Assembly (NCBI GenBank): GCA_965645245.1
Contig: OZ287070.1
Span: 744,001 to 808,000 of the forward strand
DNA: 64,000 nt
Origin: Massalongia carnosa
Lineage: Eukaryota
Direction: 5' to 3'
Below, in pieces: positions 8,554 through 64,000 of the stretch. Under the pieces are notes generated by a model. The model saw only the letters and a list, made by a program, of their open reading frames with translations, made no database searches and had not been told where the DNA came from. Position numbers and translations under genes: made by a program. Position 1 is the stretch's first letter. Each line of letters opens with the position of its first letter.

Positions 8554-11481
8554 CTAAAACGAAGGTGGATAGGAGACAGGGGTGTGAGCCATGTCAAATT
8601 GCGGGGTCTGGTAGTGGAGATGCTCAAGGTAAGGATGAGGATCAAGTGAACTAGGGTTGATTAGTTGCTGCTGTTGCTGTTGGGAGGTATGCTGTTGGTG
8701 AAAACTCGAACCGTCGAGTAGGAGGCCGGATGGGTTGATGTGAGTAGGATATGATACAGGGTGAGCGTTGGGATCGGTAGGCGTGTTCTGAGGTGGATAC
8801 TGAAGGTGTGCAGAGTATTGGGGAAGATCGTTAGGCTGTGAATGTGGGATAGTGTCGAAACCGAGTTGGAGAGGCGACGTGACGGGTGGATCAAAGTCGG
8901 TGGCTTGAAAAGGTTGATATACGTGCTCATTAGAAAGGAACATAGCTTGAGAGTCATCATGGGGCTGGGTAGGAGAAATGTAATTGAACGAAGAGGCGGG
9001 TTCAGTGGGCAAGATGTGGATATCCTCTGTTGAATCCATCACCTGCGGTTCCTGCTTAGGTTTCTTGGGCGAGAGTCTTCCAGATGGTGGGCGGTTGGTT
9101 GGAGACCGTGGGTTCTTGATACTCAATCTCCGTGCCGGAACCCTGGGTCTTACATCTCGCAATGAAAGGGAGCGGTGTGCTCTCCTCCTTTGCGCCAATG
9201 CAGACTTGGCTGATGAAGACATTGGAAACCCCATCCTGGACCTGCCAGAACCACGTCTTTTCTCATCATACCGGAGATCACTCCCTGCCATGTGGAAATC
9301 CAAGGGCGAGAACCCATGCGGCGATAAGTCTTGCAGGTACAGATCTTCCAGAAGCATCATCCCTTGCTGTCCCATGACCTTTTCCTTAATCGAATCGCCA
9401 GATACAAGACCTTTGAGCAATGGTCCCAGCCTCTCCACTGCGTCTCCCGCGAGTTTATGGATCCCAAGCTTATTCATCTCGATAAAGGTGCTGTAGGTAT
9501 GTTGAACGGCGCCAAGGTCTCTTGTCTCATTGGTCTCCAGCATGGAGAGAGTAAGCAACATGGCTGCGTTGAACGCCATTTGACCCATTGCCCAGCAAAT
9601 CATTGCAGCTCGAGCGCGGGTCTGGAAGAACTGAAACGCAGCTAGTAGAGCTCGGCAGGATTCGAGCACACGTTCACGCCCGCGAGGAACATAATTAAGA
9701 TCAGATGCCACAGATAAACTTGAAGAGTGGGCGGCAGATTCAGTGATGGAGCCATGATGATTCTCGAGACGTTGCCGGTTGATAATAATCAGAAAGTTGT
9801 GAGTTTTTGCATGCAACGTCCCGGCTTGGACGTCAAGTGGCCACCCGGGTACAGATCTTTCTTTATCTAACCATGTCTCGTCGAAATTAACAAGACTAGG
9901 AAGCGTTTGTTTCAGTAATAGCAATTCATCTGAGAACCTATCTATCTGGTCGTTGCTCAGAAAATCGGCCGATAAAATTTGACGCCCTAGGAGGGTGAAT
10001 TTTGTGATGTAGCTAGAAAGACTTTGGCCAAATGGATCGGGGGTTATTGGCTCTGGCGCTGGACAATCGCCAATACTCGACATTGCAAGTGGTCGTCCGA
10101 GCGCCATGGAGTAATGCTGATCCATGTGCAGCATCCACCACCACAGATTTTTGCGAACCATAACCTCTTTGGAAGACGGAGGAGGATTCGCTTGACTCGG
10201 ATCACGATGCACTGAATACATTAGCTGATTTTGCTATTTGCAGAGTGAAAGAAAATACTCACGCCCTATACTTTGTGCGAGTCTGACGGTCGTGCCAAAC
10301 ATAGCGGACGCATCAATGAACTTGCCACAGTTGGTAAGGTACGGGCCCATCATTACCAAAGTTTGAATGGTGAGCAGCGTTGGTCGGTTCAGGAACGAAG
10401 CGAGCCTCAACGCTTGCATTGCAGCAGCGACTAAGCATGTTAATGTAGGAATCGATCTCTTCAGTGATAATCACATACTGTAGACGTCTCCTTTTCTAGA
10501 TTCTTCTTGGACAGACCCCGCAATCCATTTCTCCCCGTTTTTATCATACACTCCGTCTTGCAGCCCTTGCGCTAGAGTTGCGAAAAGCAAAGCAAGCATA
10601 TTAGGATGAACAGCTGCATTATGCTGCACATTCTCTAGAAAACGATGTATCTCGCTTCCGGTGCATTCTTCGGGTATGTGAGGAAATGAACATGCTTGTG
10701 CTCGCCGTTGGAAAGATTCCAGATAAAAATGAATATCTTCATTACTTGGCAGAAGCTCTATTAGGCCAGCTGTTTCGTCTCTAGCAGACCACAGCGTAGG
10801 AAACGGATGAGTGGTTGATATCGGAAAAGCGAAAATATCAGGCCCCCGAGGAATCGAATGTGGAAGATTTGCAGTGTTGCGGTCAACGGACAGATGCGCA
10901 AACTGGAATGATTTAGTTAAAGCAGACACCATGCAGATAGAGATTAACCTCTTCAATTACATTCGTCATACCCGAACTCCCGAAGTAGAAGCCATCGCCG
11001 TTTTGAAATCGTTTGCGGCTTACACCCGGGGGTTTGACGGCCACTTTTGGAGGAAGTCTTATCTTTTGCGTACTTCGCAGCGGGATCAGATCATCAAAAG
11101 GTTCGGTCTTGATGGGATGACCACGAAGGATCTCGACTTCATTTCGAAGACGAGCGATTGCCTTGTCCTTTTCCTTCAGCGCTTCCGCTTGCAAAATTGG
11201 CTGCCTCTCGGCCTCCGACAGGTCATAACGACACTGATCTGCTATTTGGTGCATCGAACAGGCAGTACATGGCTGAATGCGATCGCACTGAAGCGTAAAT
11301 CATCAGCACCACCCACGGCGGCATTGACCAGCCCATGACGCACCTTGACCTTTCGTTGCCTACACGGATTACAGGAGAGTTGAGGACGTTTGGTTTTCTC
11401 ACGGGGTGGGGGAGGCCGGGCGAGTATTTGTTGCTGATCGGAATGGTCGTTGGGGTTGGCAAAGGGGTTGATGGTGTCCAT
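8554..11481 (-). CDS. Zn(II)2Cys6 fungal transcription factor with fungal-specific TF middle domain, multi-exon
   Basis: SCNPCRQRKVK|CDRIQPCTACSMHQIADQCRY is split by the intron at 11288-11343. Later exons give AMFGTTVRLAQSIG-LHRDP and RKNLWWWMLHMDQHYSMALGRP. Gln/Pro-rich C-terminus. Confidence 0.92.
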
Positions 11482-17370: not shown

Positions 17371-20300
17371 TTACATTGACCTGAAAACTTGAGCATCCCC
17401 ATCAACCCATGCCCTCGAAATGTCCCTTGCAAGACCCAGCCTCAGAATCCCCAGTAAATCATCCCCGGTCATATCCCTTGCCATTCCATTCCTCCAATCC
17501 CAGCATCTCTTTACCCCATCACCTTTTCCACCATCACTAGGCCGCTTGACTATGACTCCACTTCCGCTTCCGGCGCCGCCTACGCTGGACTCGAATTCCA
17601 GCATCGAAGTACTTACAAGCGAAAACCCGCTACTGGAGGTCATGTTACTCACATTTTTCTTAAGGAGATCCCCTGGGGACGGCGTTTGCTGGAATCCATG
17701 AGCTGCGGCGAGGGTGGAGCGAAAGAAATCTTCGCAAACCGCGTAAACACGGGGGGTGACTGTCTGTAGGTCTTCGATAGCTCTCAGAAGAGCGAAACTT
17801 TGCGACAAAGAGAGGATTCCCTGCGGCTCTATGAGTAATGATTAGTAAACTGATCGTATGCGTTCTAGCTGGCTGGCAAGAGTACTTACGATCAACGAAA
17901 TATCGGGCTTCACCTAGAAGAGCAAGTAGCCCGTCAACCTGCACCACTGAACCACGCTCCTCATCGTAAAGACCACCATGGATGTTATCTGCAGCGCTAT
18001 TTATAACCGCCAAAAGCGCCCCTGCAGCAGCCTTTTCCCGTGTAATGGGCCGCAACCTTGGTTTTTGACCGTTCTCAAGATTCAGCTCCTCGTCCCGTAA
18101 GTCGTAAAACTTCCGCAGCGTAGCATAGCCAGTGAGATACAAGTGCAAGAGTTCAGCAGCTTCGCGGTCAAGCTCGCCAAGCTGGTCGAGACTCGCCCGA
18201 GGGAAGAAGATAAGGGCATGAAGGTTTTGGTCTAGGGAGGATAGAGGGGGAAAGGCAAGGGATTGGACAAGCGAGAACGAGATGAGTAGGTCGAGGACGT
18301 CTTTAACTTTTCTTGAGCAATGCGCACGAGCGTAGTAAATTATGGCTGTGCCATACCTATCCGAATTTTCGGCAACGGAGTCGGCGTATTTCTATCACTT
18401 TATTAGTAATGTGATTTCCTTGTACAACCGAGGCATCATTTACCTCAGCGATGCTGTGAGCTTCTCGCTCCATTTGAAGTTCGCCACATATATCGAGTAT
18501 CTTATCCACCCTTTCATCTGAAAGCAGAGGAATACGACTTAGTAGTTTGCTGACCTTCTTGTTCACTAAGCTAGCATCGTCGACACGAGATAAGACTTCA
18601 ATAGATAGTTCCCAGCCCTCCTTGGATAGGCTTTCAAGTGGCTCTTCAATTATATCCCTTGCGTATAAGGCCTCTGCGTATTCTGCTAGTAGGCTGTTTT
18701 TCTTACTAGCCTGCTCTTCCTGGTCATAGCTGAGCACCATCAAATCACTCTCATTGAACCCACCCCTCATAGCACCTCCGGCCGAAGAGTCGTACCAGCC
18801 TCCAAGACATGCTATTTCAACGACCGCAGAAGCAATCGGAAGAGACCATCCTTGTAAAATGGCAAGCACACTTTCAACGTTTCCTTCGAATAAGGACGCC
18901 AAGCCCACTTCAGCAGCATCAATAGGACTAATCTGAAACATGTTGCCGTCGGAGTCATTAGTAACTCTTTCAAAAGCGAAAGCCAACCGTCGTAGATACG
19001 CTGCAGTAGCATTAAGGTCAACGAACCGTGTATTTCGAGATTGCGAACGCCTGAGAGAACGTCGGGTCATTGCCAAATTGCCTACTGCAAAGTCATCATC
19101 GTCATCATCACCATCCCACCATATTGTAAGGCCTATGGCGGCTTCTATCCAGTCTTGGGCTACCGAGATGATCTCTGTAGTCCCCCCAAGAAATATCCCA
19201 TACAAGGTCTTCAAGCTTCGATATATTGTCCAGGGGACTCGGCTCTCTATTCGCCTCGAGGTTTGGCTGAGCGTCCTAGTTGCGCTCCTGATGCCAAAGT
19301 TTGGAGCTTCAAACGTGGATTCGGTAGGGTCCATATCTCGGTCATGACCCTCGGCAAATATAGCTAGATCGTTCAAGGCTTGCTCGATTCGCTTTCGAAA
19401 GGTCTGCCATTCGCTGCCAGATACATTCCAGTCTCCATCTTGCAAGGCGGGACATAATTCGAGAAGTTGAATGGCTATGTTAATGACCTTTTTGATGTTT
19501 TCAAGCTGAGAGCCTTGATAACCGCTTTGTCCAAGTCCATCTTCTCTGGCTGTACAAGCATCTTTGAAATCTGAACTCTTTAGCAGCTGTATAACTCCTC
19601 GAATCTGGCCCCGTAAAGCAGAGGTGAACATCATGTCCCAGAAGTTGAAGCTTGCCGTTGGGTTGGGTTCGTGCGTCATTAAATTAAGCGTAGCCACGCG
19701 GTATGGGTAGTGATGGTCATTTAACCAGCTTACAAGGACTTTTGGCAAAGCGGTCGGATTCTGAGGGCTATAGGATGGCCGGGCTGGTGAAAAACCTGAG
19801 CCCCGGGATTTTCGCGGTGCTGCTAAAGCTTGTTGGCCTTTGGCTGGAGGAGGATGATGAAGTTGTAAGAGCAACGTAGCAAGGAAAACGGCGCGTTTGA
19901 AGGGCGGTGCGTTCTCATCCGGCCCAATACCGACAGTGTAATCCTCACCTTCAAGAGACTCGTCTCTAACCTCATCACAACACCCTTTCCAAAGAGTTTT
20001 CAAGTCTTCCGAGATTTTCGAGAGTGCAATCTCCAGGTCTCCCTCCCCCCGTTCGGCATTGTGTTTTAGGTTGTAAATTTGACCGACAAGCTGTTCTGTC
20101 CCTATGATCAGATGATCTGGATCATCCAATCTTGCAACGCCAAGTTGCGAAGCTAGGTCCTTCGCGATGCTTGGAATGGCTGAGTCTTGTTTCGGCTGAC
20201 GAGGTTTCCCTCCTCGATTAGTCGACCTAGGAGATATAGCACGACCAACATGAGACCTTTTAATTCCTCTTTGAGTCCCGTCTCTAATTGAATGCGTGCA

Positions 20301-31656: not shown

Positions 31657-32867
31657 AACGACAAATTGGCTGTAGGCAAGCTTCAGCTGCCAAAATTGAA
31701 GGATATTGAGCTCAGAACTAGAATCTAAATAGTCAATGGTGATCACGATGTCTCTTGCATTTTTATCACCACAAGCCTGTACTTAATTTCTGTGGATGTT
31801 AGCTTTGTACTTGTAGCGGGTATATGAACTAGCCTGCTGTTGATAATAAGCATTTCACTAGGGAGCTATCCATCGTATACACTCTCTGTTTCAGGCAAAG
31901 GTTCTCAGAGGTTATGAATAAGTAATAAATCTCCTAGAATACTCTCTACGAGGTAGAACGAGACACGTTAGGCTTGCACAACATGATGAAACAATCGTTT
32001 TGGCGAACTATATCGCTCATTCGAATTCTGATTTAATTTCATGCGCATCGTCGGATAATTAATATGTAGAAAATTTGTAAGAGCTCGAGCACGTTTTATT
32101 TCATTCGGATCCTTTCTCAGTACTCTGTACAGCGCCAATGACTCTTTGAACAAAGCTGTACGTCCACGGATGCTTGGTCCATAATGTTAAACTCTGAATG
32201 ATAACAGAATATGGATAATTAGACAAATTATGATATTTAGTACAATGACACGTTCACTAACAAAAAAGAATAGAAAGACGGTAGCAAAGATATAGATATA
32301 GCAGACAATGAGGAGAAAGACATGATTGCTCAATAGCGCTATAGTTAACCAGTTTTCGCAGAACTGGCTTTCGACTCTGGCAAATCCAGACTAATTGAAA
32401 TTTTCCTGAATAACTCACAAAATTTATTGGCTTTTGTTCCTTGCCTCAGAAGGTAAGCTGCATAATAGCCTGATCACTCTGAAGGGTTGTTGATCCTCTT
32501 GTTTCGTCTTGCTCGCCAAACCTTAGGCTAAATTGAAAAGCGCAGGACATACCAACTCATTACTACATGTTAGAAATATCATTGAGTTGTGATCGAAGCC
32601 CAGGCACTCGAAACTAATATTCCAAAACGTTCACCGAGAAGGTGCACGGGTGCTAGGTTCAAGAATCGATCTGAGTCCTAAATGGACAGTTCTGCTAATC
32701 ATCGAAGCTCATTCCAAAAGCATTCACATTAAACAAGACTGCTAAGCTCCTCATACAGTTTCTCTTGTCATCTTTTAGAGAAGCCAATATTTTTACCAAG
32801 ACTAAGTAGGTAACCACGATGATTACATAGCTATAACTCAGTAAACCTTCCCCGAGTAGATTCGGGA

Positions 32868-34078
32868 CAGACCCCATCTGGCAGACCCCTCGTAAAGTTC
32901 TACTGCTTATTAGGACTAGCTTAAGCCTTATCCTCGCATAAATTAACAGTCCATCTACTAATGCAACGTCCCCCCGCAAGCTTCAAATACCTACCTAATT
33001 GATTATAATCCAGTCACTTGCAACATTACTTATTGCTATAGTCAATTCAAACATCACACGTAGCTAGCCTCTGATTATTTGATGAGGGGTAATCATCCCA
33101 TATACTCAACGGTTATCATCTTTTCGATTATATTCTTTCTCTCAGTCATGGCCTCCGCCTTATTTTCCCTAGATCAGAAAATTGAAAAGATCAAGGTCCT
33201 TCTCCCTTCAGCTCATTGTCTTCTCCCTCAAGAGAGAGAAGGTTTCGCTAGCTGAAAGAAGGGAAAGGCTCGCCTTCAGCACTATGCTTTTACTCAGGGG
33301 TTCGCGATAGTCATAAAATCTTTTCAGAAAACACGAAGAGTCATGTTATCAGAATGCACACGTCGTCATCGAAAAGAGAGAAACATCAGAAAATTGACTG
33401 AGACAGACCGCCAACGAAAGAGTACGAAAGTTTCGTTCAATAACTGAAAATATAGAGTCCGCCTAAGAAAAAAAAAAGATGAGATCTAAAGCTTACTCTA
33501 GCACTCATCAACCCCGTACACAATCATTTCATGGCCAATGACTCTTTTAGTTTCAAAGAACATCATAATAGGAACCCCGATCGAGCAGAAATCCTGAATC
33601 ATGCGAAAGGTCTTCGCGATTCATGTACTAAATATACTCAAGCCTCAAGAACTTCGCGTGTTCGAGGACTTCATCTTTCGCAGAATGATTATAATAATCT
33701 AGTTCGATCTGAAGGAAGTCATACATCCGCAGAGGAAATGAATTATACACTTGAATGCTTGAAAGGAGGAGGGTTTCACGTGCGCTGTTTAAAGAAATAT
33801 ATAGTTGAAAACAACATACGGCAGCGACGTGTTGTGAAGTTATTTTTCTTCTGCAATAAAGAGCAAATCAGATTAGTCGCAATGAGTTGTATATAATAGT
33901 AATGAAATAGTAGAGTGTACATAATAGGTGTGACTTTTTCATAAGTCAATCTGGATATAACGGCTTATCAGCTAGGTATATGAAGCTTTAGTAGATGGAC
34001 TATTAATTTAGTGTGAGGGTGAGGCTTAAGCTAGTCCTAATAAGCAGTAGAACTTTACGAGGGGTCTGATGGGGTCTG
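32868..34078 (+). mobile_element. Internally deleted, decayed Mutator-like (MULE) DNA transposon with ~100-bp TIRs
   Basis: Inverted repeats at 32868-32964 and 33985-34078 (core CAGACCCCTCGTAAAGTTCTACTGCTTATTAGGACTAGCTTAAGCC). Interior 33148-33890 encodes a stop/frameshift-ridden MULE N-terminal region (RLQHYAFTQGFAIV...ECTR...HNH.MANDSFSFKEH...LFFFCNKEQIRL). No clear target-site duplication. Confidence 0.7.
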
Positions 34079-34788
34079 TACAATGACTTTTTCTGATCGA
34101 CGTCTGCAACATAGTTATAGAGCACATCCTTTGCTCATACCAGAATCCGGAAATACCGTGAAAGTTCGTTATTTTGTTCAAATGCTGCGTTTTGAAGGGA
34201 GTTATGCATTATTAAGGGACAGAGTGTAACCCATTTATATTTTGTAGCTGCATTGATATTTGAGTGTCTGCTGTTATTTTCGTATCTTAACTATGTATCA
34301 CGAGCATAATATAAACAGACGGACAGAAAATATTCTTGCACAACTCATCCACCTTTTTCTCTTAGGGAACAATCACGAACGGGTTGAATCAATGACTAAA
34401 AGGATATATGACGTTTTATGTGACGAGGCGGCACCGGGGGCCTATTCAGGTGGTGAAGGTGGTGGCATTGCTAGCTGGCTATACTAGATAGACAAGACGA
34501 ACACAAGGAAGAAAGCAGCAATTGCTGCAGAGATTTTCCATATCTCCCGGAATCCATTTCCTTACCTGAATGCGGTTAGCTTCCCACTAAGCATCTCGCG
34601 CTCACACCATGACATTTTAGATAACTATGAATAAACCGTTGCTATAATTGCAAATGAATTACTTTAAATCTAAATCTGATGATTCACACTTATTTTGGTA
34701 TTTGCCAGCTATAATTACCTTCAGCTGGGTTTTGTTAATTAAATAAATAGTTGATATATATATTAAGAGACATATAATCAAATCATCC

Positions 34789-34934
34789 GCCCGGGTGGCA
34801 CAATTGGGTGAGTTCCAACGTCATTTGATCACAGAATTGCAAATTGCAAATAGCTGACTCTCCATAAGCTAGCGCGTAAGACTTTTATCCTTGATGTAAT
34901 CTTAAGGTTGAGGGTTCGAGCCCCTCCTCGGGCG
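34789..34934 (+). tRNA. tRNA-Lys(UUU) gene with two interruptions: 61-nt D-loop insertion (34808-34868) and canonical 11-nt anticodon-loop intron (34888-34898)
   Basis: Removing both gives GCCCGGG TG GCAC AATTGG|CTA GCGC G TAAGA CT TTT A|A TCTTA AGGTT GAGGG TTCGAGC CCCTC CTCGGGC G. This has a 7-bp acceptor stem, 5-bp anticodon and T stems, intact A box (TGGCACAATTGG) and B box (GGTTCGAGC), and one D-stem mismatch. Confidence 0.88.
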
Positions 34935-34940
34935 ATAATG

Positions 34941-34945
34941 TTTTT
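34941..34945 (+). terminator. RNA polymerase III oligo-dT terminator
   Basis: TTTTT 7 nt after the tRNA discriminator base, followed by further T runs. Confidence 0.7.
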
Positions 34946-35245
34946 GATTTTGATTTGTTTGGGTCGTTGAAATGTATTTTTACTGAACTTGTTGTTTGAT
35001 TTTCAAAAACTTGTCGGATGTTTCTTAACTTCAAAAAATCAGACTCATCTATGATAGCCCTAGTCACTAGATCTCAGCGTGGCTAATCAATCTCTCTTCT
35101 GCTAAAAGAAGTGATGACTCGCTGCATGAAACTCATGACCCTGCTCCGCCTGAATAAACCCTGCCAGCCCAGTGACCCTGGATGGAGTCATGGTCACAGA
35201 TTCAAAGTTTCGCTTTCTTCATTACAATACTGACACCACTGATAG

Positions 35246-36235
35246 ATCTGCTTCCTAGATATCTGTCCCGAGTTGCGCGTTCTGATCTATGATCACCTCT
35301 TCGACCAGCCAAACAATACGATTCTAGGAATCTCCCGTGAACCCCAGCATGACTATGAATACGGCCCTCCAAGTAAATGGATCGCCGACTCGCGCCAGCA
35401 AGGCCTTGTCTATTCTAGTGATAATGACCGTGCGAACCCTACCAACTCTAGCATGCTACTCACCTGCAAAGTCGTTAACGAGGAAGCTACGCCGATCTTC
35501 TACGGCGCCAACAAAATTGTGCTTTACGCCGAGGACAACAACGATATTTTCTACTGGTTGCTCGACATCGGCGACACAAATCGGCGCGCAATCCGCCACT
35601 TAGAGCTTGGATACGCGTACGGGGTCGAGATCGCGTCTGGGAGGGGGAACTTTCATGGCATCGTGGCGCGCATCAATGAGATGGATGAGTCGCAAGAGGA
35701 GGAGATTCAAAAGCATCGCGGCCAATTGTTGAAAGTAGCACAGCGCATGGAAAGTAAGATGGTGCGGTTAATCATCCGGACGCTAAACCTGCTCGTCATC
35801 AATCAGAATCTTGTTAGCCTGGCCGTTTACCTTCCCGGTGTAGATGGCGGCGACATTTGGGACATCCCAAACGATAACATTTACTTCGCCGAGGAGATAT
35901 TTTCCAACTCGACCACGAACGTATATGCGTGTATCCCGAACGCGCTACGGAAGATGGTTGGGATCCAAACGCTCACGATTGGATATACAAAGGACATTGT
36001 GCTGGCGGAAGAGATCGCCAGGGATATCGGGACGAAGGAGCTAATCATTCGTGTTCATCCGGAAGGCAATTCACTTGGGCTAAACACGGAGGAGCGGGCG
36101 CTCTGGTCGGATGCTGGATGGTCACTGGATGGGTCCAAGGCACATAAGTGGTTGACTCAGGAGAAGCAGAGGGGAAATGAACTAGAGCATGCTGAGAAAT
36201 ATTCAGAATCCAACAAGGCGAAAGGATGCAACTAA
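35246..36235 (+). CDS. Hypothetical fungal protein with N-terminal F-box-like 'FLDLPxELRxxIY' motif; first exon upstream uncertain (possibly from 35114)
   Basis: Acceptor CTGAC...GATAG ending at 35245, then ICFLDICPELRVLIYDHLF...MLLTCKVVNEEATPIFYGAN...WLLDIGDTNRRAIRHLEL; uninterrupted ~330-codon exon. Confidence 0.75.
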   Translation: MCFLDICPELRVLIYDHLFDQPNNTILGISREPQHDYEYGPPSKWIADSRQQGLVYSSDNDRANPTNSSMLLTCKVVNEEATPIFYGANKIVLYAEDNNDIFYWLLDIGDTNRRAIRHLELGYAYGVEIASGRGNFHGIVARINEMDESQEEEIQKHRGQLLKVAQRMESKMVRLIIRTLNLLVINQNLVSLAVYLPGVDGGDIWDIPNDNIYFAEEIFSNSTTNVYACIPNALRKMVGIQTLTIGYTKDIVLAEEIARDIGTKELIIRVHPEGNSLGLNTEERALWSDAGWSLDGSKAHKWLTQEKQRGNELEHAEKYSESNKAKGCN

Positions 36236-41650: not shown

Positions 41651-41999
41651 GGTGTACCACCTCACGTGCACCTCTAGTCGGGGAAAGCGATCTGCGTAGT
41701 TTCAATCTCAGGATTCACCCATTTTACCACCTATTTTGCAGCTTTTTGCAACACTTCTCGACCGCAACCTACGACCGTTAGCTGTTATTAATCATACCAT
41801 AGATAGATATCAACTGCACATCCTAACTGCTCATTTATCAACCGGGAATGCATTATATTTTTCCAATTTCACCAGTTTTATCACCTATTTACAACTCATT
41901 TGCGACGCCGTCTCATCATGATTTGCAACCTCCATTTGCTTTATTTTCAACCTCATTTGCAAATATTATTAATAAGTAGATATATATCAACTATGCGTT

Positions 42000-43148: not shown

Positions 43149-43682
43149 GATTGAGGTGGGGAGCGGTTGATGAAATAGGGAGAGAGTGATTGACGAAATA
43201 GGAGGCATGCAACTGATGCGGTCGCGATTGAATAAAGGTGAATATCCCGGTTAATCAATGAGTAGTTAGGATGTGCAGTTGATATCTATCTATGGTATGA
43301 ATAATAACAGCTAACGGTCGTAGGTTGCGGTCGAGAAGTGTTGCAAAAAGCTGCAAAATAGGTGGTAAAATGGGTGAATCCTGAGATTGAAACTACGCAG
43401 ATCGCTTGCCTACGCAGACCGCTTTCCCCGACTAGAGGTGGTACACCTCGTATGGAGGCAGCTAAGCGAGGCCGACGATTAAGCCTGGCTACCGACATAC
43501 GACTGCTTTGCAACACCTAGCGTTAGTTCAGTCGTCAAGCATTTCAAAAATAAAGTTGAAGTCTCAAACAATTGATAGGCTAGTCCCCTGAAGGTATGAG
43601 ATCCTTCGTTGATTGGATATCGTGGCAAACTAGTAACAGGTGGGTGGAGGTGCTGTGTTTTTGATTCAAATGTCTTAATATC

Positions 43683-43956
43683 TGTTGAAATAGGTGTATG
43701 ACTATGGCTATATGGCTATGTAATAATAAAGGTATGTATGACCGTGATGTTAAGGATGAAGAGTTGCTAGGCAGCAATCTTTTCCTATTACTGGTCACCC
43801 CCTTCTAAGCGAGGTGATCTTATCTTATCTTGGGACTAAGCCTAATGCGGCATCTACGGTTTCCGTAGATGATCTGTCCATCTATGGCAGCCGTAGGTGC
43901 TATGTTCATCGTACTGATAGGTGTTCATTGTGCTGGTAGGAATTGGATATTCAACA
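43683..43956 (-). repeat. 3' LTR of Copia element
   Basis: TGTTGAAATAGG...GGATATTCAACA; direct repeat of 48624-48897 with one difference seen (43885 T vs 48826 G). Confidence 0.95.
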
Positions 43957-47284: not shown

Positions 47285-47768
47285 AATGGGAGAATGGGGA
47301 GCAATTGAACAAGGCGAGAAACTTAGTAGTGACTGAAAGAATGTGGATCTGTGACCTTTCTTATAGACAAGGAAAAAACAGTCCCTCCTTAGCCAGTGTC
47401 CACTCTGATGTCTCAACAGAGAAACCTGTTAGCTTAACATGCTTGTTTGCCATGATGAGAATTTCAACTCCGGCTTTTTCAAGGGTCCAATTGACCAAAA
47501 GCAAATTGATTATTCCAATTTGATTTAACCGGCCTTAGGCCGGTTAGATAATAAGAGGCAACTGCCGCACAATCTCATCTAGTGCCTTAAGGAGGCATAA
47601 TTGCCAAAAAGAAAGGTCTTTGTGCCTTCGATCAATGAGTTTACTAAGCTCTTTGATGTCCGAGGGATTTTGTATTTTTTGCGTGTCCAGAACTCAACAA
47701 CGGGTGAACTGACGCTTTGATGATTTTTGAACCAATGGGGCGCTCAGGGCCAGCGATATACTTTTTTT

Positions 47769-48377
47769 TGCCTTCGACCATCGAGCTTAGCGAGCTCTTT
47801 TGGTGTCCGAGGACTTCGGTGCCTTCGACCATCGAGCTTAGCGGGCTCTTTGGTATCCGAGGACTTGAGCGCCTTCGACCATCGAGCTTAGCAAGCTCTT
47901 TGGTGTCCGAGGACTTGGGTGCCTTCGACCATCGAGCGTAGCAAGCTCTTTGGTGTCCGAGGACTTGGATGCCTTCGACCATCGAGCGTAGCAAGCTCTT
48001 CTGGTGTCCGAGGACTTGGGTGCCTTCGACCATCGAGCGTAGCAAGCTCTTCTGGTGTCCGAGGACTTGAGTGCCTTCGACCATCGAGCGTAGCAAGCTC
48101 TTCTGGTGTCCGAGGACTTGGGTGCCTTCGACCATCGAGCTTAGCAAGCTCTTTTGGTGTCCGAGGACTTGAGTGCCTTCGACCATCGAGCATAGCAAGC
48201 TCTTTTGGTGTCCGAGGACTTGAGTGCCTTCGACCAGCGAGCTTAGCAAGCTCTTTGGTGTCCGAGGACTTAAGTGCCTTCGACCAGCGAGCATAGCAAG
48301 CTCTTCTGGTGTCCGAGGACTTGGGTGCCTTCGACCATCGAGCTTAGCAAGCTCTTTGGTGTCCGAGGACTTCGGTG
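47769..48377. repeat. Tandem array, about 12 copies of a 50-51-bp unit, in the Copia leader
   Basis: Unit GTGCCTTCGACCATCGAGC(T/G)TAGCAAGCTCTT(C/T)TGGTGTCCGAGGACTTG(G/A); a degenerate extra copy lies at about 47622-47666. Confidence 0.95.
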
Positions 48378-48611
48378 TAGTACGATCAATGTGTTCATGC
48401 TTTCTAACACGCAGTTTTTGTGCTTCTGACAAGAAATCGCTGTGTACAGAAGAGAGAACTGATTGATGTGATTTAAGGGATCGTTTCTAAAGACACAGAA
48501 AGATTTTAGTCATGTGTCTACGATTCATTGAATAGGAACGATGCTTAGCTGATTGCACTGCGAAGCTGCGGATTAAAAGTTTCGATTCGTTTAAATCGAT
48601 AGCACCCTTCC

Positions 48612-48623
48612 GGGCTCATAACC
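48612..48623 (-). other. Primer-binding site GGTTATGAGCCC (half-tRNA iMet type)
   Basis: Immediately follows the 5' LTR on the minus strand. It matches the initiator tRNA-Met anticodon-arm PBS type used by yeast Ty5 and Drosophila copia. Confidence 0.8.
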
Positions 48624-48897
48624 TGTTGAAATAGGTGTATGACTATGGCTATATGGCTATGTAATAATAAAGGTATGTATGACCGTGATGTTAAGGATGA
48701 AGAGTTGCTAGGCAGCAATCTTTTCCTATTACTGGTCACCCCCTTCTAAGCGAGGTGATCTTATCTTATCTTGGGACTAAGCCTAATGCGGCATCTACGG
48801 TTTCCGTAGATGATCTGTCCATCTAGGGCAGCCGTAGGTGCTATGTTCATCGTACTGATAGGTGTTCATTGTGCTGGTAGGAATTGGATATTCAACA
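48624..48897 (-). repeat. 5' LTR of Copia element
   Basis: Direct repeat of 43683-43956. Confidence 0.95.
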
Positions 48898-49977: not shown

Positions 49978-52165
49978 CGGGATTTCCCGGTGAAACGCCG
50001 AACCCGGTGAGAACGCCGAAATTTCTAAATTTCGGCACTTTGCTATTTTTTGCTACGATGCGACAACCACCACGATTGATACACTGCAGCTTTGGTAATT
50101 GTACATAGAAGGTGTCCAATTTGATGTATAGAAGAAAAATTCTATTCGCCAAAATGATTTGGCTTTCGCACCTCTCTCCCCCTAGATGTACGAGAAATTA
50201 TCATTTCCACTCCACCAACCACCTCGACATCATCACTTTGCTCCTGGGACTGCTTTCGACACTTTGGCACCTGCTTTGGCCCTGTAGATGTCGATTTCAA
50301 CCTCATCGATAATTCAGAAGGCTTAGTACTTGCGGTTTTCAATTCGTTTTGGGCCTGCTTTTCGACCGCTTTAGACTGCCTCGCCTCCTCGATCAATCGT
50401 TTTTTTTCTATAGCAACTAGGGCCCGTTCTTGCTTTTCTTTTTCCTTCAGCGACTTGTTAAAAACTAATTTTGCCCGTTTTTCAGCGAGATCCTGTTGCC
50501 GTCGTGTCTTTTCGTCATCTTTTGAAGCCTGATAGGCTCTGGCCGCTGCCACCCTACCCGGACTGAAAAATTGAGGCCCAGAATCTTCTTCACCTAGCAA
50601 ATTCAGGCGTTTACCACGTTTTCGTCGTTTCTTTTCCTCTTTAAGTGCCTCGCATAGGCCCCTAATTACGTGTTGATCAATAGAACGATTAGCTGCGAGA
50701 CGCTCATTTGCAGCAAATATCTTGGACAACAAAACTCTATTTGGCTCTTTTACGTAGGCTTTTTGTATGCGACGAACCGCCCGTCCCGTCATAGGTGTCT
50801 TGGGTGCTTGTGTGACGTTAGGTATCTCCTCTGGTGAAGGCGATTTGGTGATTTTATCTAGTAGGATGTTTGGATTGTACGGCCATATGCCTGTCTTCTC
50901 AAACCCAGAGTTTATGTTCTTTTCATTGAAGGCCTTCTGCCAGGCAGGCCAAAAAACACCCCAGAAGACTCTTTTTGATATGTTCACTGTGCCCAATGAG
51001 TTAAACATCATATCATTGAGGCCATTCGTATAATACCGGGCCAGGGGGGCAAACAATGAAACATTTAGGGGTTGCAACCGGTGCGTAGTATGCGATGGTA
51101 GAATCATCAATAGAATTCGTAGTTCATCGCATTTATTGATGAATTTCATATTGACGTGGCTAGAATGACCATCCACCACCAGCAACCGCCTTCTATGCCC
51201 CATTTGCTTCGTACATCGTTCAAAAACACGCTCAAGCCAGTTCAGACCAAGCAGGTCACAACTCCATCCATTGGAGGAGACCGCGAAGAAAGCTTGCTGA
51301 TCTACACTCCAATCTTCCAACCATGTATCCTGAAGTGTCTTTGAATCGCCTCTATAGATCAGCGCGGGTGGTAAAGCGGTACCGTTTGCGCATATGCAAG
51401 CCAGTAGACTGATGAATTCACGACTTCCATCTTGACTCGCATGGGTTATGCGCCCCGATTCTAGAGCTTCAAGAGTCATTATTCGCTTTACGGCAGAGGC
51501 CATGCCAATTAAAAAGCCCTTTTCGTCCCAATTATAGACGTTATCTGCTGTGATGTTATATTTTTCGATGCCCGCGATCAACTAGAAGAAATGTTGACTA
51601 TTAGGCACAAATGCGACGCAATTAGGGGCAGTTATATTGTCAAAACTACGGACCTGATCATAGAATTGTTTGAATGTAGGTGCATACTCAGACTTTATGC
51701 GTAGACTGTCCATGTTGCGTAAATATAGACTTTTAAGTCTATCTTGATTTCGCTTAGTGAATTCTCCCGCCCAGTTCCTACCTACTGACGACTGGATCAT
51801 TTCTTCTGCCAAATTGCGCACAATTGTAGGGGTAGGAGGTATTCCTCTGTCGGTTAATCGATTGATTTGTGAGATTAGAGCCTCTTCTTGGACCGTTGTG
51901 AGGCGTTGCTTATGTGTGGATGAAGCCTCCCGTCGGGAGACCGATTGGCCTTTCCATCGCCGCCGAAGAGTACTTTCGACTAGGCCAAATTTCTTAGCAG
52001 TTGCAAGTATATTTGGTCGCTCTTGCGATTCTAAATTAGCAATTGCTTGGTCAATTGGCGCGGTGGTGGTAGTGTTATTCATGGTTGAAGAGGGTAAGGT
52101 GGTGCGGAGTAATTTTCTAAAATTCGGCGTTGTCACCGGGTTCGGCGTTTCACCGGGAAATCCCG
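49978..52165 (-). mobile_element. Fot1/pogo-type Tc1-mariner DNA transposon, full length (2188 bp)
   Basis: TA|CGGGATTTCCCGGTGAAACGCCGAACCCGGTGAGAACGCCGAA ... TTCGGCGTTGTCACCGGGTTCGGCGTTTCACCGGGAAATCCCG|TA (~43-bp TIR, 1 mismatch, TA TSD). Confidence 0.96.
50142..52082 (-). CDS. Fot1/pogo transposase (HTH + CENP-B-like HTH + DDE_1), 2 exons, ~622 aa
   Basis: Exon 52082-51654, intron 51653-51582 (GTCCGT...CTAAT...TTCTAG), exon 51581-50142, in frame. Motifs VYNWDEKGF, LLVVDGHSSH and THRLQPLNV. Confidence 0.9.
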
Positions 52166-58182: not shown

Positions 58183-61148
58183 TCAAGAATGGCCCTGCAG
58201 GTTCACATCCACGTCACCACCTGGGGCGACCATTCCATCTACTGTGCGGGATTCTCCGCCACCTTGATTACCACCGTTACGTTCATCCTCGCTCTGACTA
58301 GCGCTTTCGTCCCCTTGCAATTCATTCCGCAATTGCTCGGCGCGATCTGAAAGGACCTTCGCCTCTTGCGCGGCCCTCTGCGCTCGTATTTGCTTGCGCC
58401 ACATGCTTGCATACCGCCCTTTCCGCGCTAGAAGCTCCTCGTGTGTTCCACTCTCGGCAACCTGACCGGCATGCAGCACTAATATTTGGTCGGCAGTGAT
58501 GATTGTAGACAAGCGGTGAGCAATGACGAGCGTAGTGCGTCCTTGGGATAGCTTATCCAAGGCTGTTTGGATATGTTGTTCGGTGTCGCTGTCTAGAGCT
58601 GCAGTAGCTTCATCCAGCAGGATGATGCGTGGATCTTTTATGATGGCTCGTGCAATTGCCACACGCTGTTTTTCACCCCCGGACAGCTTAAGCCCTCGTT
58701 CGCCCACACGGGCCTCATAGCTGTCTGGAAAATCTTGGATCTTTTCATGGATGCTTGCGGCCCTGCAGGCATCGAAAACATCTTCGTCAGTTGCCGATGG
58801 GTTGGCGTATTTAAGATTATACATAAGGGTTTCGTTGAATAAGACTGTGTCCTGCGGCACAACGCCAATATGATGGCGCAGCGAATCAATCTTAAGACTC
58901 TTAACATCATGCCCGTCGATTTGGATGCTTCCTTCGCCGAGATTGTAAAATCGGAATAGCAAGCGGAATACGGTTGATTTGCCACCGCCGGACTCCCCGA
59001 CCAAAGCCGTTGTAGTACCAGGAGCGCATCGGAAACTCAACCCATCCAAAGCAGGTTTTCGTGGATCATAGGCAAATTTAACATCGTTAAAACGTATTTC
59101 GCCCTCGCAAGACGGTAGATCCTGTGCATCTGGTTCGTCAACAACACTCGGGCGCTCCTTGAAAAGTTCTAGCATACGTTCGGAATTAATCATTGCAGAC
59201 TGGATGGATCGATAGAACGTGCCAAAAAAGTTCAGCGGGCCTTGAAGCTGTGCCATGTATGTGAGAAGTCCAACAAACTTTCCCACCTTTCGCTGGCCCG
59301 TTGTGACTTGATAGGCAGCGATGAAGCAGGTAATCAAAAGGCCAAGGGTGAAAACGAGGTTTTGCGAGACATTCATGATATTCAGCGAAATTAAGACTTT
59401 ATATTCGGCACGCTGGTAATCTCTGACAGCTCCACGATATCGATTAAACTCATATTGCTCCGCATTGAAGTATTTGACGGTTTCATAAGATACCATGGAA
59501 TCATTTCTACACGACAATGTCAGGGAAATAATGCAGAGTAGGGAGTTGTATAATTGCTTACTTTACAGCGTATTCTTGACGGCTGGAGTTAACCATCTCG
59601 CGTCGAATTTCTGCACGCCATTGGGCCAAGCGGATGGTAAGGTAGAGATATGCAAATGTTACGATGGCAACGACAAGCGCGTAATAGGCATCGAAAGCAA
59701 TCAGGAAGTAGCCAATAGCAACGGCCAAGTCGATGAGCATAGGAAACACTTGGAACGTCACCTGCTCAAGAAACGTATTTATCGAGTTCCCTTTGCTCAA
59801 GGCCGAGAGAACTTCTCCAGTCTTCTTTTCTAGGTGAAAATCAAGGCTTAGTCCATGTACATGCTCGAACGAAGCCGTCGAGAGTTCTTGATAGGAGTAT
59901 TGGCTTATAGGGACCCAAAGCGTCCCTCTCACAGCGCCCAAAAGGCCATTGCTGCCTTGCAGAAGTCGGAAAAGAATGTAGAGACAAATTTGACCCCACG
60001 GAACCTCCAAATTGCCCCCACGCTCTCCAGAAAGTATGTCGGTAATGACGCTGACTTGATAGGGAACCAGCACATTGACAACCCGGGCCATCATAACAAG
60101 TAGGAAACAAATTACAACTGTAATTTGTAACCGGAGCGACCTCGCAGGCCAAAGATAAGGAAAGAAAAGGGAGTATCCTCGGAGGTATTCCCACCAACTT
60201 TTGGACGGAACCTTATCTGGCCGAACCCATCCAGAGGTCTCTTCTTTCTGTAAAGTGCTCCCATAATCTTGGCCATTGACAGTACCGTTGCCCACCGGGT
60301 GGCCATTTAAAAGCCTAATTCTTTCGGGCGGGGTTCCGTTTTCTCCCCGATCGGCTTGCCGAAGCTTCGCAATACGAAGACCGAGAAACAACGCATAGAA
60401 AAGGACCAACGCAAGTAGAAAAATGATGCGCAGCACATCAAGGACAACCTCAATGACTTCCCATTCAGTCATACCCGTCCTCATCCGGCCACCGTCAGGG
60501 TCGCCTGCCTTGGGTTCTCGGTGCTCGTAGGCGTAGATAGCAAATGATGCGCCAAGTAGCAGGATTTCCAAACCGAGAGCCACCACCCAGGTTGAGAAGT
60601 GCGCCCACGTTGGAGAGGGCTTAGTATCCAGTAGGGAAATAAGGAAGAGAGTGTACACGAAAAAGGAGGATACTACATAAATCTAGGTTCTTGAAGTTAG
60701 CCAGATCATGCTGCGTAAGGACCTTGGAAGATTGGTGGTGCTATACTGCCACAGATTCACCGCACCACCAGTGATCCACTCGATCCAGAACGGCATGTAG
60801 GATTACGACGATGGAATTCCCCACAAAGGTCAGAATCGTCCCAACCGAGAGCCAGGTGAAAAGTAGTTTCCGAGCCGGGCTAAAATCCAGGGTTTGCTCC
60901 TCTCGTCGTGCTTTGGCGGATGCTGAGGATTTTTGGGGTAACGGTTTGCCACCTGGGCCGGTTTGGTCTGGTGGGGCAGGGACCACGGCATCTTTGGAGG
61001 CGGTAGCAATACTATGGGCGGTAAATGCCACCAGAAAGACTACAAGGAGAACGATAGGAGAAGCGAAGTGAATGTATACAAGAATGCTTTGAGCAGTACG
61101 CCGCGACGCCCAAGGGGTGATCGGCCCCGTAAAGAGTGAGAAAGCCAT
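58183..61148 (-). CDS. HMT1: HMT1/ABCB6-like heavy-metal-tolerance ABC half-transporter, 3 exons
   Basis: N-terminal membrane extension, LFFPYLWP, FEHVHGLSLDFHLEKKTGEVLSAL, NDSMVSYETVKYFNAE, Walker A GESGGGKST, signature LSGGEKQRVAIARA and Walker B ILLDEAT. Introns near 60683-60746 and 59508-59560. Confidence 0.9.
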
Positions 61149-62892: not shown

Positions 62893-64000
62893 ATGTCGTT
62901 CAATATCGACGATGCCAGAGACCCAAGCTTAGTGCCAAGATCCGCACTAGCTGAGGGTCCAGCCTCAGTCTCAGCTCCTCCCCCTCCTCCACCTCCACCA
63001 GCTCCTCCTTTGCCTCCCCAACAGTATGGTTCTCGTGCAGCAAATGCCCTCTACCGTCTGGCGCAACCCTTGATATACGGCTCTCGACCACCTAGTGCCA
63101 ATGGGGAGCGCCCAACTCACCCCAACACCGCGGGGTTGATACCCAGTGTTCAGAAGAACCACAGGTAGGTGCGGTATTGATAACCTTTGAATCCGGCCTC
63201 AGCGCTCAAACTTGCTAATCATTCAACTGACCGCAATGGCAGCCAATTGTCGTCAAGAAGTACAACCCACAAGACTGGCATCCCAATCGCCGCCCTTGAT
63301 ATCTCTCCCTATCGAACGCATGCTATCTTAGCGGGAAGAGATATTTTAAAGACGATTCAGGTGGCAGATTCTGCCTCCGAGGACTTCAATCTCCGTTCTG
63401 CCATCATAGCATATGCGTCGACTCACAATTATGCTGGAGGTGCAATATCAGCAACCCACAAGGACCAACTAGCGGCAAACGATGTCAAATGGTCGCATGG
63501 AAAGTTTGACACCACTGTGGCGACGGCGGCCGCAAACGGTCAAATTGTGATCTATGATATAAACCGGCCAGGAGTGGAATATGGCCGGCTGCATGAGCAT
63601 GTACGTCAAGTACATAGGATTGCGTTTAATCCGCACCAGGGAGCCTTGTTGCTGTCAGGAAGTCAAGATGCTACGGTGCGACTTTGGGATCTGAGAAGTT
63701 TGGCAGGCGACAGAAGTGTTATGACGTGCCATAGCACACATCAATACCCAGGCAACAACGAAGGGATCCGGGATCTGAGGTGGTCTCCTACGAACGGGGT
63801 GGAGTTTGCTGCCGGAACAGACAATGGGGTGGTTCAGCGCTGGGATTTTCGAAAGGAAAAGGTTCCAATCGTCAAGGTGAACGCTCATGAGAAAACCTGT
63901 CATTCTATTGATTGGCATCCGGATGGTAAACACCTTGTCAGTGGGGGAGCCGACAAATGCATAAATGTATGGGATTTCTCTTCTGCAGATCGCAGAAAGA
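62893..64000 (+). CDS. RTC1: WD40 protein RTC1/SEA2 (WDR24-like, SEACAT/GATOR2); 5' part only, runs off the window
   Basis: Pro-rich exon 1, intron near 63165-63242, then [75 protein letters not shown] and IRDLRWSP. Confidence 0.85.

Follow-up and report, generated by a model that had tools for sequence, protein, structure and literature searches.

A spliceosomal-type intron in the D-loop of a nuclear tRNA-Lys(UUU) gene of the lichen-forming fungus Massalongia carnosa

A stretch of 64,000 nucleotides (nt) from Massalongia carnosa (contig OZ287070.1 of assembly GCA_965645245.1, forward-strand positions 744,001 to 808,000; hereafter the window, whose own numbering is used throughout) carries a nuclear-type tRNA-Lys(UUU) gene at 34789-34934 on the plus strand. 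Direct reading divides the gene into five pieces, three exons and two inserts (Table 1). The smaller insert is a canonical tRNA intron at the 37/38 site. The larger interrupts the D-loop right after G18G19, as an earlier model-made reading of the same letters (the sequence-only reading) had reported, and it bears the signals of an intron removed by the spliceosome. As a matter of anatomy, its assignment to the spliceosomal kind is well supported. The sequence evidence also leans, by a modest measure, towards a working nuclear tRNA-Lys(UUU) gene with two introns of two kinds, one of them a spliceosomal intron in a gene of RNA polymerase III (Pol III).

The locus has the anatomy of a type-2 Pol III tRNA gene: the intragenic A and B boxes are present, a T run follows, and removal of the introns leaves a cloverleaf. 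With the 61 nt deleted, the cloverleaf drawn by ARAGORN contains G18G19, A21, and a 9-nt D-loop. Both boxes and the T run had been described as intact, and all three were located by direct reading and pattern matching. The strict B box at 34913 is the only one in the whole window. The TTTTT run is predicted to act as the Pol III terminator, and the TATA-like tract may be an upstream Pol III element by analogy with those of fission yeast and plants. The D-loop insert starts directly after the A box and its longest internal T run is 3 nt, a measure that does not discriminate, the mRNA introns catalogued for comparison having maxima of 3-4. The fold of the whole precursor is unremarkable (z = -1.04). 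The 37/38 intron is 11 nt long in ARAGORN and appears as a 12-nt insertion in a partial Rfam alignment. The sequence-only reading was right about the D-loop insert and overlooked this second intron at 34888-34898. The omission bears on the mechanism, as a single precursor would be handled by two different splicing machineries.

Table 1. Pieces and signals of the split tRNA-Lys(UUU) gene, and the mRNA introns of the window used for comparison
Feature	Position	Strand	Details and basis
TATA-like tract TATATATATTAA	34755..34766	+	-34 to -23 relative to tRNA position 1; read directly
tRNA exon 1	34789..34807	+	positions 1-19: acceptor 5' strand, D stem 5' strand, D-loop to G18G19, ending AATTGG
A box TGGCACAATTGG	34796-34807	+	pattern match, within exon 1
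Spliceosomal-type intron, D-loop, 61 nt	34808..34868	+	between positions 19 and 20
tRNA exon 2, starts CTAGCGCG	34869..34887	+	positions 20-37: CTA of D-loop, D stem 3' strand, anticodon stem 5' strand, loop CTTTTA, anticodon TTT
Canonical tRNA intron, 11 nt, TCCTTGATGTA	34888..34898	+	37/38 site; ARAGORN and Rfam alignment
tRNA exon 3	34899..34934	+	positions 38-73: anticodon stem 3' strand, variable loop, T arm, acceptor 3' strand, discriminator G
B box GGTTCGAGCCC	34913-34923	+	pattern match, within exon 3 T arm
TTTTT, Pol III terminator-like run	34941-34945	+	7 nt past discriminator base
Nup85 intron, 52 nt	18392-18443	-	GTAAAT, ACTAAT, branch A 11 nt from 3' site; protein homology
Nup85 intron, 61 nt	17829-17889	-	GTAAGT, ACTAAT, branch A 13 nt from 3' site; protein homology
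Intron joining open reading frames, 51 nt	10212-10262		signals and long frames
Intron joining open reading frames, 56 nt	11288-11343		signals and long frames
Intron joining open reading frames, 55 nt	59507-59561		signals and long frames
Intron joining open reading frames, 78 nt	63165-63242		signals and long frames

The gene escapes standard detection while the D-loop insert is in place. ARAGORN returns no tRNA gene from the untouched window, and Rfam at its gathering score matches no family in the whole 64 kb. Under relaxed thresholds Rfam yields a partial tRNA match at 34870-34926 with 19.5 bits, against a gathering score of 29. Deletion of the 61 nt by script is sufficient for ARAGORN to give a normal cloverleaf tRNA-Lys(ttt). 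The suspicion that scanners would miss such a gene is borne out at this locus for ARAGORN and Rfam. Two other ARAGORN calls were rejected. A 'Gln' call, made with introns allowed, is spurious and has mismatched arms, and an alternative Thr(tgt) sets the 37/38 intron one base off the canonical site, where the eukaryotic 37/38 rule gives the anticodon UUU.

The signals within the insert follow the order of a short U2-type GT-AG intron of the fungal class. The 5' site GTGAGT (34808-34813) stands at the first intron base and fits GTRNGT. The branch site GCTGAC (34853-34858) fits CTRAY, has its branch A (34857) 11 nt away from the final G, and is followed by the pyrimidine stretch CTCTCC. No AG occurs within 34859-34866, and the insert ends with ATAAG at 34868, the first AG after the branch. 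These three signals had been named by the sequence-only reading, and direct reading finds each of them in place. It had also held that exact removal restores a normal D-loop. The cloverleaf is restored, but the boundary is not unique, as it can slide by one base (G/G).

The combination of signals is rare. All 61-nt stretches of the window on both strands were examined for a GTRNGT start, an AG end, and, 7-35 nt from the end, a CTRAY after which no other AG intervenes. Only 2 of 127,880 stretches pass, the tRNA insert itself and the mRNA intron at 17829-17889 on the minus strand, compared with 3 of 1,280,000 positions in 20 shuffles of the window. Because other boundaries would have been acceptable, given the one-base slide and a D-loop that tolerates several lengths, the chance figure is to be multiplied by roughly 10-25 by our own estimate. 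Coincidence of the spliceosomal signals therefore lies at or below about 1e-4 (about 1e-5 to 1e-4). As a converse control, each of the 114 signal-bearing segments of the window was deleted and the result run through ARAGORN. A tRNA emerges from one of the 114 deletions, that of the tRNA insert, and from none without deletion. Together with the single strict B box, this indicates that there is no second gene of this kind in the 64-kb window.

The insert was compared with mRNA introns found elsewhere in the window. On the minus strand, the Nup85 proteins P0005, P0029, and P0036, all from Lecanoromycetes, align as three blocks separated by two introns. The comparison set consists of these two homology-backed introns and of cases in which signals join long open reading frames; blind searches for introns bridging reading frames were too noisy and were set aside. 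At 61 nt the insert lies inside the window's range of 51-78 nt and equals the longer of the Nup85 introns in length, in agreement with the earlier statement that its length and signals match those of the local mRNA introns. Judged by its letters (61 nt, GTGAGT, GCTGAC, 11 nt from branch to end), the insert is indistinguishable from the mRNA introns of the window, its AAG 3' site being the sole weak point. No second copy was found in the 64-kb window; the longest other matches are 14 nt for the insert and 14-15 nt for the insert with its flanks. An introner-like element would have many near-identical copies in the genome, and within these 64 kb the insert has none. Within the intron a 7-nt unit, AATTGCA, occurs twice in tandem (34835-34851) and resembles the exon 1 D-loop sequence CAATTG just upstream. 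The repeat may reflect replication slippage or be a trace of the origin of the intron.

The same Nup85 gene places the host. The window's Nup85 frame has Lecanoromycetes as its best named relatives, with Pseudocyphellaria at 56%, followed by Lasallia, Pleopsidium, Xylographa, Lambiella, and others. The host is therefore taken to be a lichen-forming ascomycete, and that database contains no close sequenced relative of it. The window's own Nup85 entry in the database (P0001) is a single-frame prediction and yields nothing on introns.

The locus recurs in independent data sets, compared here as contigs, which show no splice joints and carry no information on expression. Three runs of the source organism, X1-X3, contain the 601-nt stretch around the gene completely and without change. 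X4, a lichen metagenome produced in a separate study, contains 54% of the sampled words of this stretch, and one of its contigs spans 34600-35100 with 7 other letters and 10 gap letters. Of the five listed substitutions, four lie in the 5' flank (34637, 34689, 34718, 34753) and one, 34816 C>T, in the intron at position 9, outside the splice signals. Two deletions are both within the 189-nt 5' flank. Exons, splice signals, the 11-nt intron, and the 3' flank are all unchanged. In a third study (X5), 34732-34830 is found across the junction of exon 1 and intron before the piece breaks at GATC. The short pieces of this set run on into unrelated sequence, as proximity-ligation chimeras would, and only that junction can be taken from them. 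A contig of another organism (X6) shares only 34898-34935, which is identical and leaves the D-loop outside the shared part. It is preceded by AGACTTTTA and then by different sequence, and followed by a run of seven Ts. This arrangement agrees with a canonical intron at 37/38 whose sequence differs from that of the Massalongia gene.

From this anatomy, a course of transcription, splicing, and origin can be inferred. Pol III, directed by the intact A and B boxes, would transcribe as far as the TTTTT run, giving a precursor of about 150 nt. The nuclear spliceosome would then excise the 61-nt GT-AG intron from the D-loop, with U1 and U6 on GTGAGT, U2 on GCTGAC, A34857 as branch point, and 3' cleavage at the first AG, located 11 nt downstream. 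Joining of G19 to C20 would allow the D-loop/T-loop elbow to form, and only afterwards would the tRNA splicing endonuclease and ligase take out the 11-nt intron. The proposed order follows from the need for the elbow, as without it the body-measuring endonuclease and the export machinery would refuse the RNA. The intron itself probably arose by reverse splicing and cDNA recombination. An excised mRNA intron would have entered, by reverse splicing, a nuclear pre-tRNA from which the 37/38 intron had yet to be removed, and reverse transcription and recombination would then have brought it into the gene. If so, retention of the 37/38 intron 19 nt downstream argues that the target was the unspliced nuclear precursor and not the mature tRNA. 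Splicing of the insert and a working tRNA are plausible, with good precedent in the same lineage.

Several points weigh against a working gene. The 3' site is AAG, a weaker variant than the preferred YAG, and the flanking exon bases (TGG before the intron, C after it) are unlike the usual proto-splice site AG/G. The D stem has one A12.C23 mismatch. In the unmodified spliced sequence the cloverleaf (-24.0 kcal/mol) lies 3.3 kcal/mol above the minimum-energy fold (-27.3 kcal/mol). The gap from A to B box is stretched to about 105 bp, which is long for a tRNA gene; stretched spacing is tolerated by yeast TFIIIC. Uncapped Pol III transcripts are generally spliced inefficiently. The unchanged exons in the lichen metagenome, whose contig is about 98% identical, are without statistical weight because divergence is about 1% and only about 0.7 changes would be expected in 74 nt. 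No insert-bearing orthologue or paralogue was met in the window or in the sequence collections scanned, which apparently lack such fungal DNA. Finally, the case for function is drawn from DNA sequence, and intact Lys(UUU) copies may exist outside the window that would make this one dispensable or dead.

The last point leads to the main rival, a dead or dispensable copy in which the intron is genuinely spliceosomal by origin, having been reverse-spliced or transposed into the gene, and is not usefully spliced. Intact Lys(UUU) genes would do the decoding, and the exons and signals would still be perfect because the event was recent. A recently hit, dispensable copy would look exactly like the gene described here. 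The AAG 3' site and the D-stem mismatch fit this explanation, as does the likely presence of other Lys(UUU) copies, several of which are usual in fungal genomes. The insert also has no match in the metagenome, genome, and viral collections, a weak point, as no intact gene of this tRNA type was returned either. Within these collections, a pattern of D arm, 40-70-nt insert, and exon 2 gave no match in the metagenome contigs, exon 3 alone gave none in the metagenome, genome, or viral contigs, and a looser pattern of anticodon arm and T stem gave none in the genome contigs; given the composition of the collections, these blanks are not evidence of absence. Against a dead copy stand the intact promoter, terminator, and tRNA identity elements and all three intact intron signals. 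The gene is also present in samples of three studies, where one change in the intron and four substitutions with two indels in the 5' flank are accompanied by none in exons or signals, a pattern that is suggestive but not significant. On balance, a dead copy is less likely than a working gene, of which it is the most serious competitor.

A quite improbable alternative keeps the spliceosome and changes the polymerase. The tRNA would be cut by RNase P and RNase Z from a longer RNA polymerase II (Pol II) transcript, for example the leader of the neighbouring gene at 35246, and the intron would be spliced co-transcriptionally. About 300 nt downstream, the next gene does share the strand, Pol II transcripts are the substrates on which spliceosomes are most effective, and a TATA-like tract is present upstream. 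However, the A box, the B box, and the TTTTT run directly after the gene make up an ordinary Pol III unit, and further T runs lie downstream of the first. Nothing points to a transcript starting upstream, and 32500-35245 contains no convincing coding frame.

A spliceosome-free explanation, that the insert is a non-canonical tRNA intron cut by the splicing endonuclease (SEN) and that its GT and AG are coincidental, is very improbable. Transfer RNA genes of archaea, the red alga Cyanidioschyzon, and nucleomorphs have ectopic introns, sometimes more than one per gene, which are missed by scanners, fold into a bulge-helix-bulge (BHB), and are cut by endonuclease. The Massalongia gene resembles them in the ectopic D-loop position, in having several introns, and in escaping the scanners, and differs from them in that its 61-nt insert does not fold in this way. 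All placements of two 3-nt bulges around both boundaries were examined, including the one-base slide, and the pairs of the central 4-bp helix and of the flanking helices were counted. The insert forms neither a BHB nor the relaxed helix-bulge-helix form (hBH): in its best placement, 3 of 4 central pairs are accompanied by no more than 2 inner pairs and by no outer exon pairs. In the 37/38 intron, which served as positive control, 3 of 4 central pairs likewise form, and the anticodon stem provides an outer helix of 5 bp, which gives the relaxed hBH expected of eukaryotic tRNA introns. Excision by a BHB/SEN mechanism at other boundaries had been named by the sequence-only reading among the findings that would count against it; a BHB at the insert edges is disfavoured by this negative fold search with a positive control. 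The gene contains one canonical SEN intron, at a site where the contig of the other, related organism also seems to keep one, and in contrast an insert at 19/20 with spliceosomal signals and no BHB. This position breaks the 37/38 rule of eukaryotic nuclear tRNA genes, and the fungal endonuclease measures from the mature domain to 37/38. The three coincident spliceosomal signals, at the chance level given above, also count against endonuclease cutting. In its favour, non-canonical tRNA introns in the D-loop and at other ectopic positions are described for other lineages in the available portion of PMC3978253.

Chance insertion of unrelated DNA (repair filler or a transposon footprint) or an assembly error is scarcely credible, as nothing specific speaks for it beyond the doubled AATTGCA unit, whereas the insert shows no variation among three runs of the source organism, recurs in contigs from two separate studies, has no repeat copy in the window, and carries a signal set far beyond chance.

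The first of the closest known systems is found in the same class of fungi. Spliceosomal introns in the nuclear ribosomal DNA (rDNA) of lichen-forming ascomycetes were reportedly described by Bhattacharya et al. in 2000. More recently, even yeast was found to remove a 57-bp spliceosomal rDNA intron of a lichen fungus from RNA polymerase I (Pol I) transcripts, and every spliceosomal rDNA intron is taken out of the rRNA in lichen mycobionts themselves, according to the accessible text of Armaleo and co-workers 2021 (PMC8527467). As far as that text goes, the rDNA introns and the Massalongia insert are alike in being short, in carrying mRNA-type signals, and in residing in a non-Pol II gene for a highly structured, translation-related RNA. 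They differ in that the rDNA introns interrupt rRNA made by Pol I and their removal from RNA has been demonstrated, whereas the Massalongia case concerns a tRNA made by Pol III and is known from DNA alone. Unlike the lichen rDNA case, the Massalongia precursor also carries a second, endonuclease-type intron.

Genes for small nuclear RNAs provide the second precedent. Fungal genes for U6, a product of Pol III, and for U1, U2, and U5 carry canonical spliceosomal introns, for which reverse splicing is the favoured origin and rRNA is named as a further case in the portion of PMC5855946 available; the U6 introns are credited there to Tani and Ohshima 1989 and 1991 and to Canzler et al. 2016. U3 genes of fungi likewise carry such introns, as do U1, U2, and U5, in the accessible part of PMC5832005. 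On these partial sources, the U6 introns share with the Massalongia insert a Pol III transcript, the order of GT, branch site, and AG in an otherwise unconserved sequence, and, in many cases, recognition from sequence signals alone. U6 differs from tRNA in being exposed to reverse splicing, because it is located in the spliceosome's active site; tRNA has no such proximity.

The textbook division assigns to tRNA protein-cut introns that are defined by structure and lie at 37/38, and to Pol II transcripts the spliceosomal introns, with few exceptions in snRNA, U3, and rRNA genes. The Massalongia insert would be an ectopic spliceosomal intron in a stable-RNA gene and, as far as the literature search reached, the first in a nuclear tRNA. 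The sequence-only reading knew of no such arrangement in a tRNA, and no published report of one was found in the full-text literature, whose coverage leaves out subscription journals; the only similar wording there, in a ciliate preprint, concerns non-spliceosomal tRNA introns. A tRNA case is also absent from the lists of ectopic spliceosomal introns in the available parts of PMC8527467, PMC5855946, and PMC5832005.

If the interpretation as a spliced intron is correct, the exceptions extend to the last major class of stable RNA, and the gene offers a natural substrate on which to study the spliceosome's engagement with a short Pol III transcript that is uncapped and bound by La. Intron gain through reverse splicing into abundant RNAs would also be supported as a route still in use. 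The tRNA gene sets of lichen fungi, and perhaps of other fungi, would be under-counted by ARAGORN, tRNAscan-type, and Rfam searches. More tentatively, spliceosomal introns may have spread in lichen-forming fungi into tRNA genes and not just rRNA genes. One 150-nt RNA would then pass successively through two unrelated splicing systems, and the present gene would be the tip of a class that scanners miss. By analogy, the tRNA intron could belong to the growth-throttling strategy proposed for the lichen rDNA introns, and the proposal that ectopic introns slow the translation apparatus would become testable on a second component.

The neighbouring gene on the same strand, with a weak DUF7730 match, opens its long frame at 35246 without an ATG. 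The gene probably has a short first exon, followed by an intron whose end (ACTGAC...GATAG) lies at 35245. No frame-consistent 5' site for this putative intron was found in the region 35114-35260.

Elsewhere the window contains several repeats and a transposase frame. Two 275-nt direct repeats (43682-43956 and 48623-48897) are 100% identical and lie 4941 nt apart with several minus-strand frames between them; the pair looks like the long terminal repeats of a young retroelement or a recent segmental duplication. A tandem array at 47769-48406 consists of about 12 units of 50-51 nt (17 codons), several of them 91-97% identical, inside an open frame on the minus strand (47644-48486). The 166-nt arms of an inverted repeat (41682-41847 and 43245-43410) are 97% complementary, with 1397 nt between them; a small DNA transposon with terminal inverted repeats has this shape. 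The open frame at 50142-51581 on the minus strand encodes a pogo/Tc5-like transposase, recognised by its DDE_1 endonuclease domain (Pfam PF03184, E = 5.8e-25).
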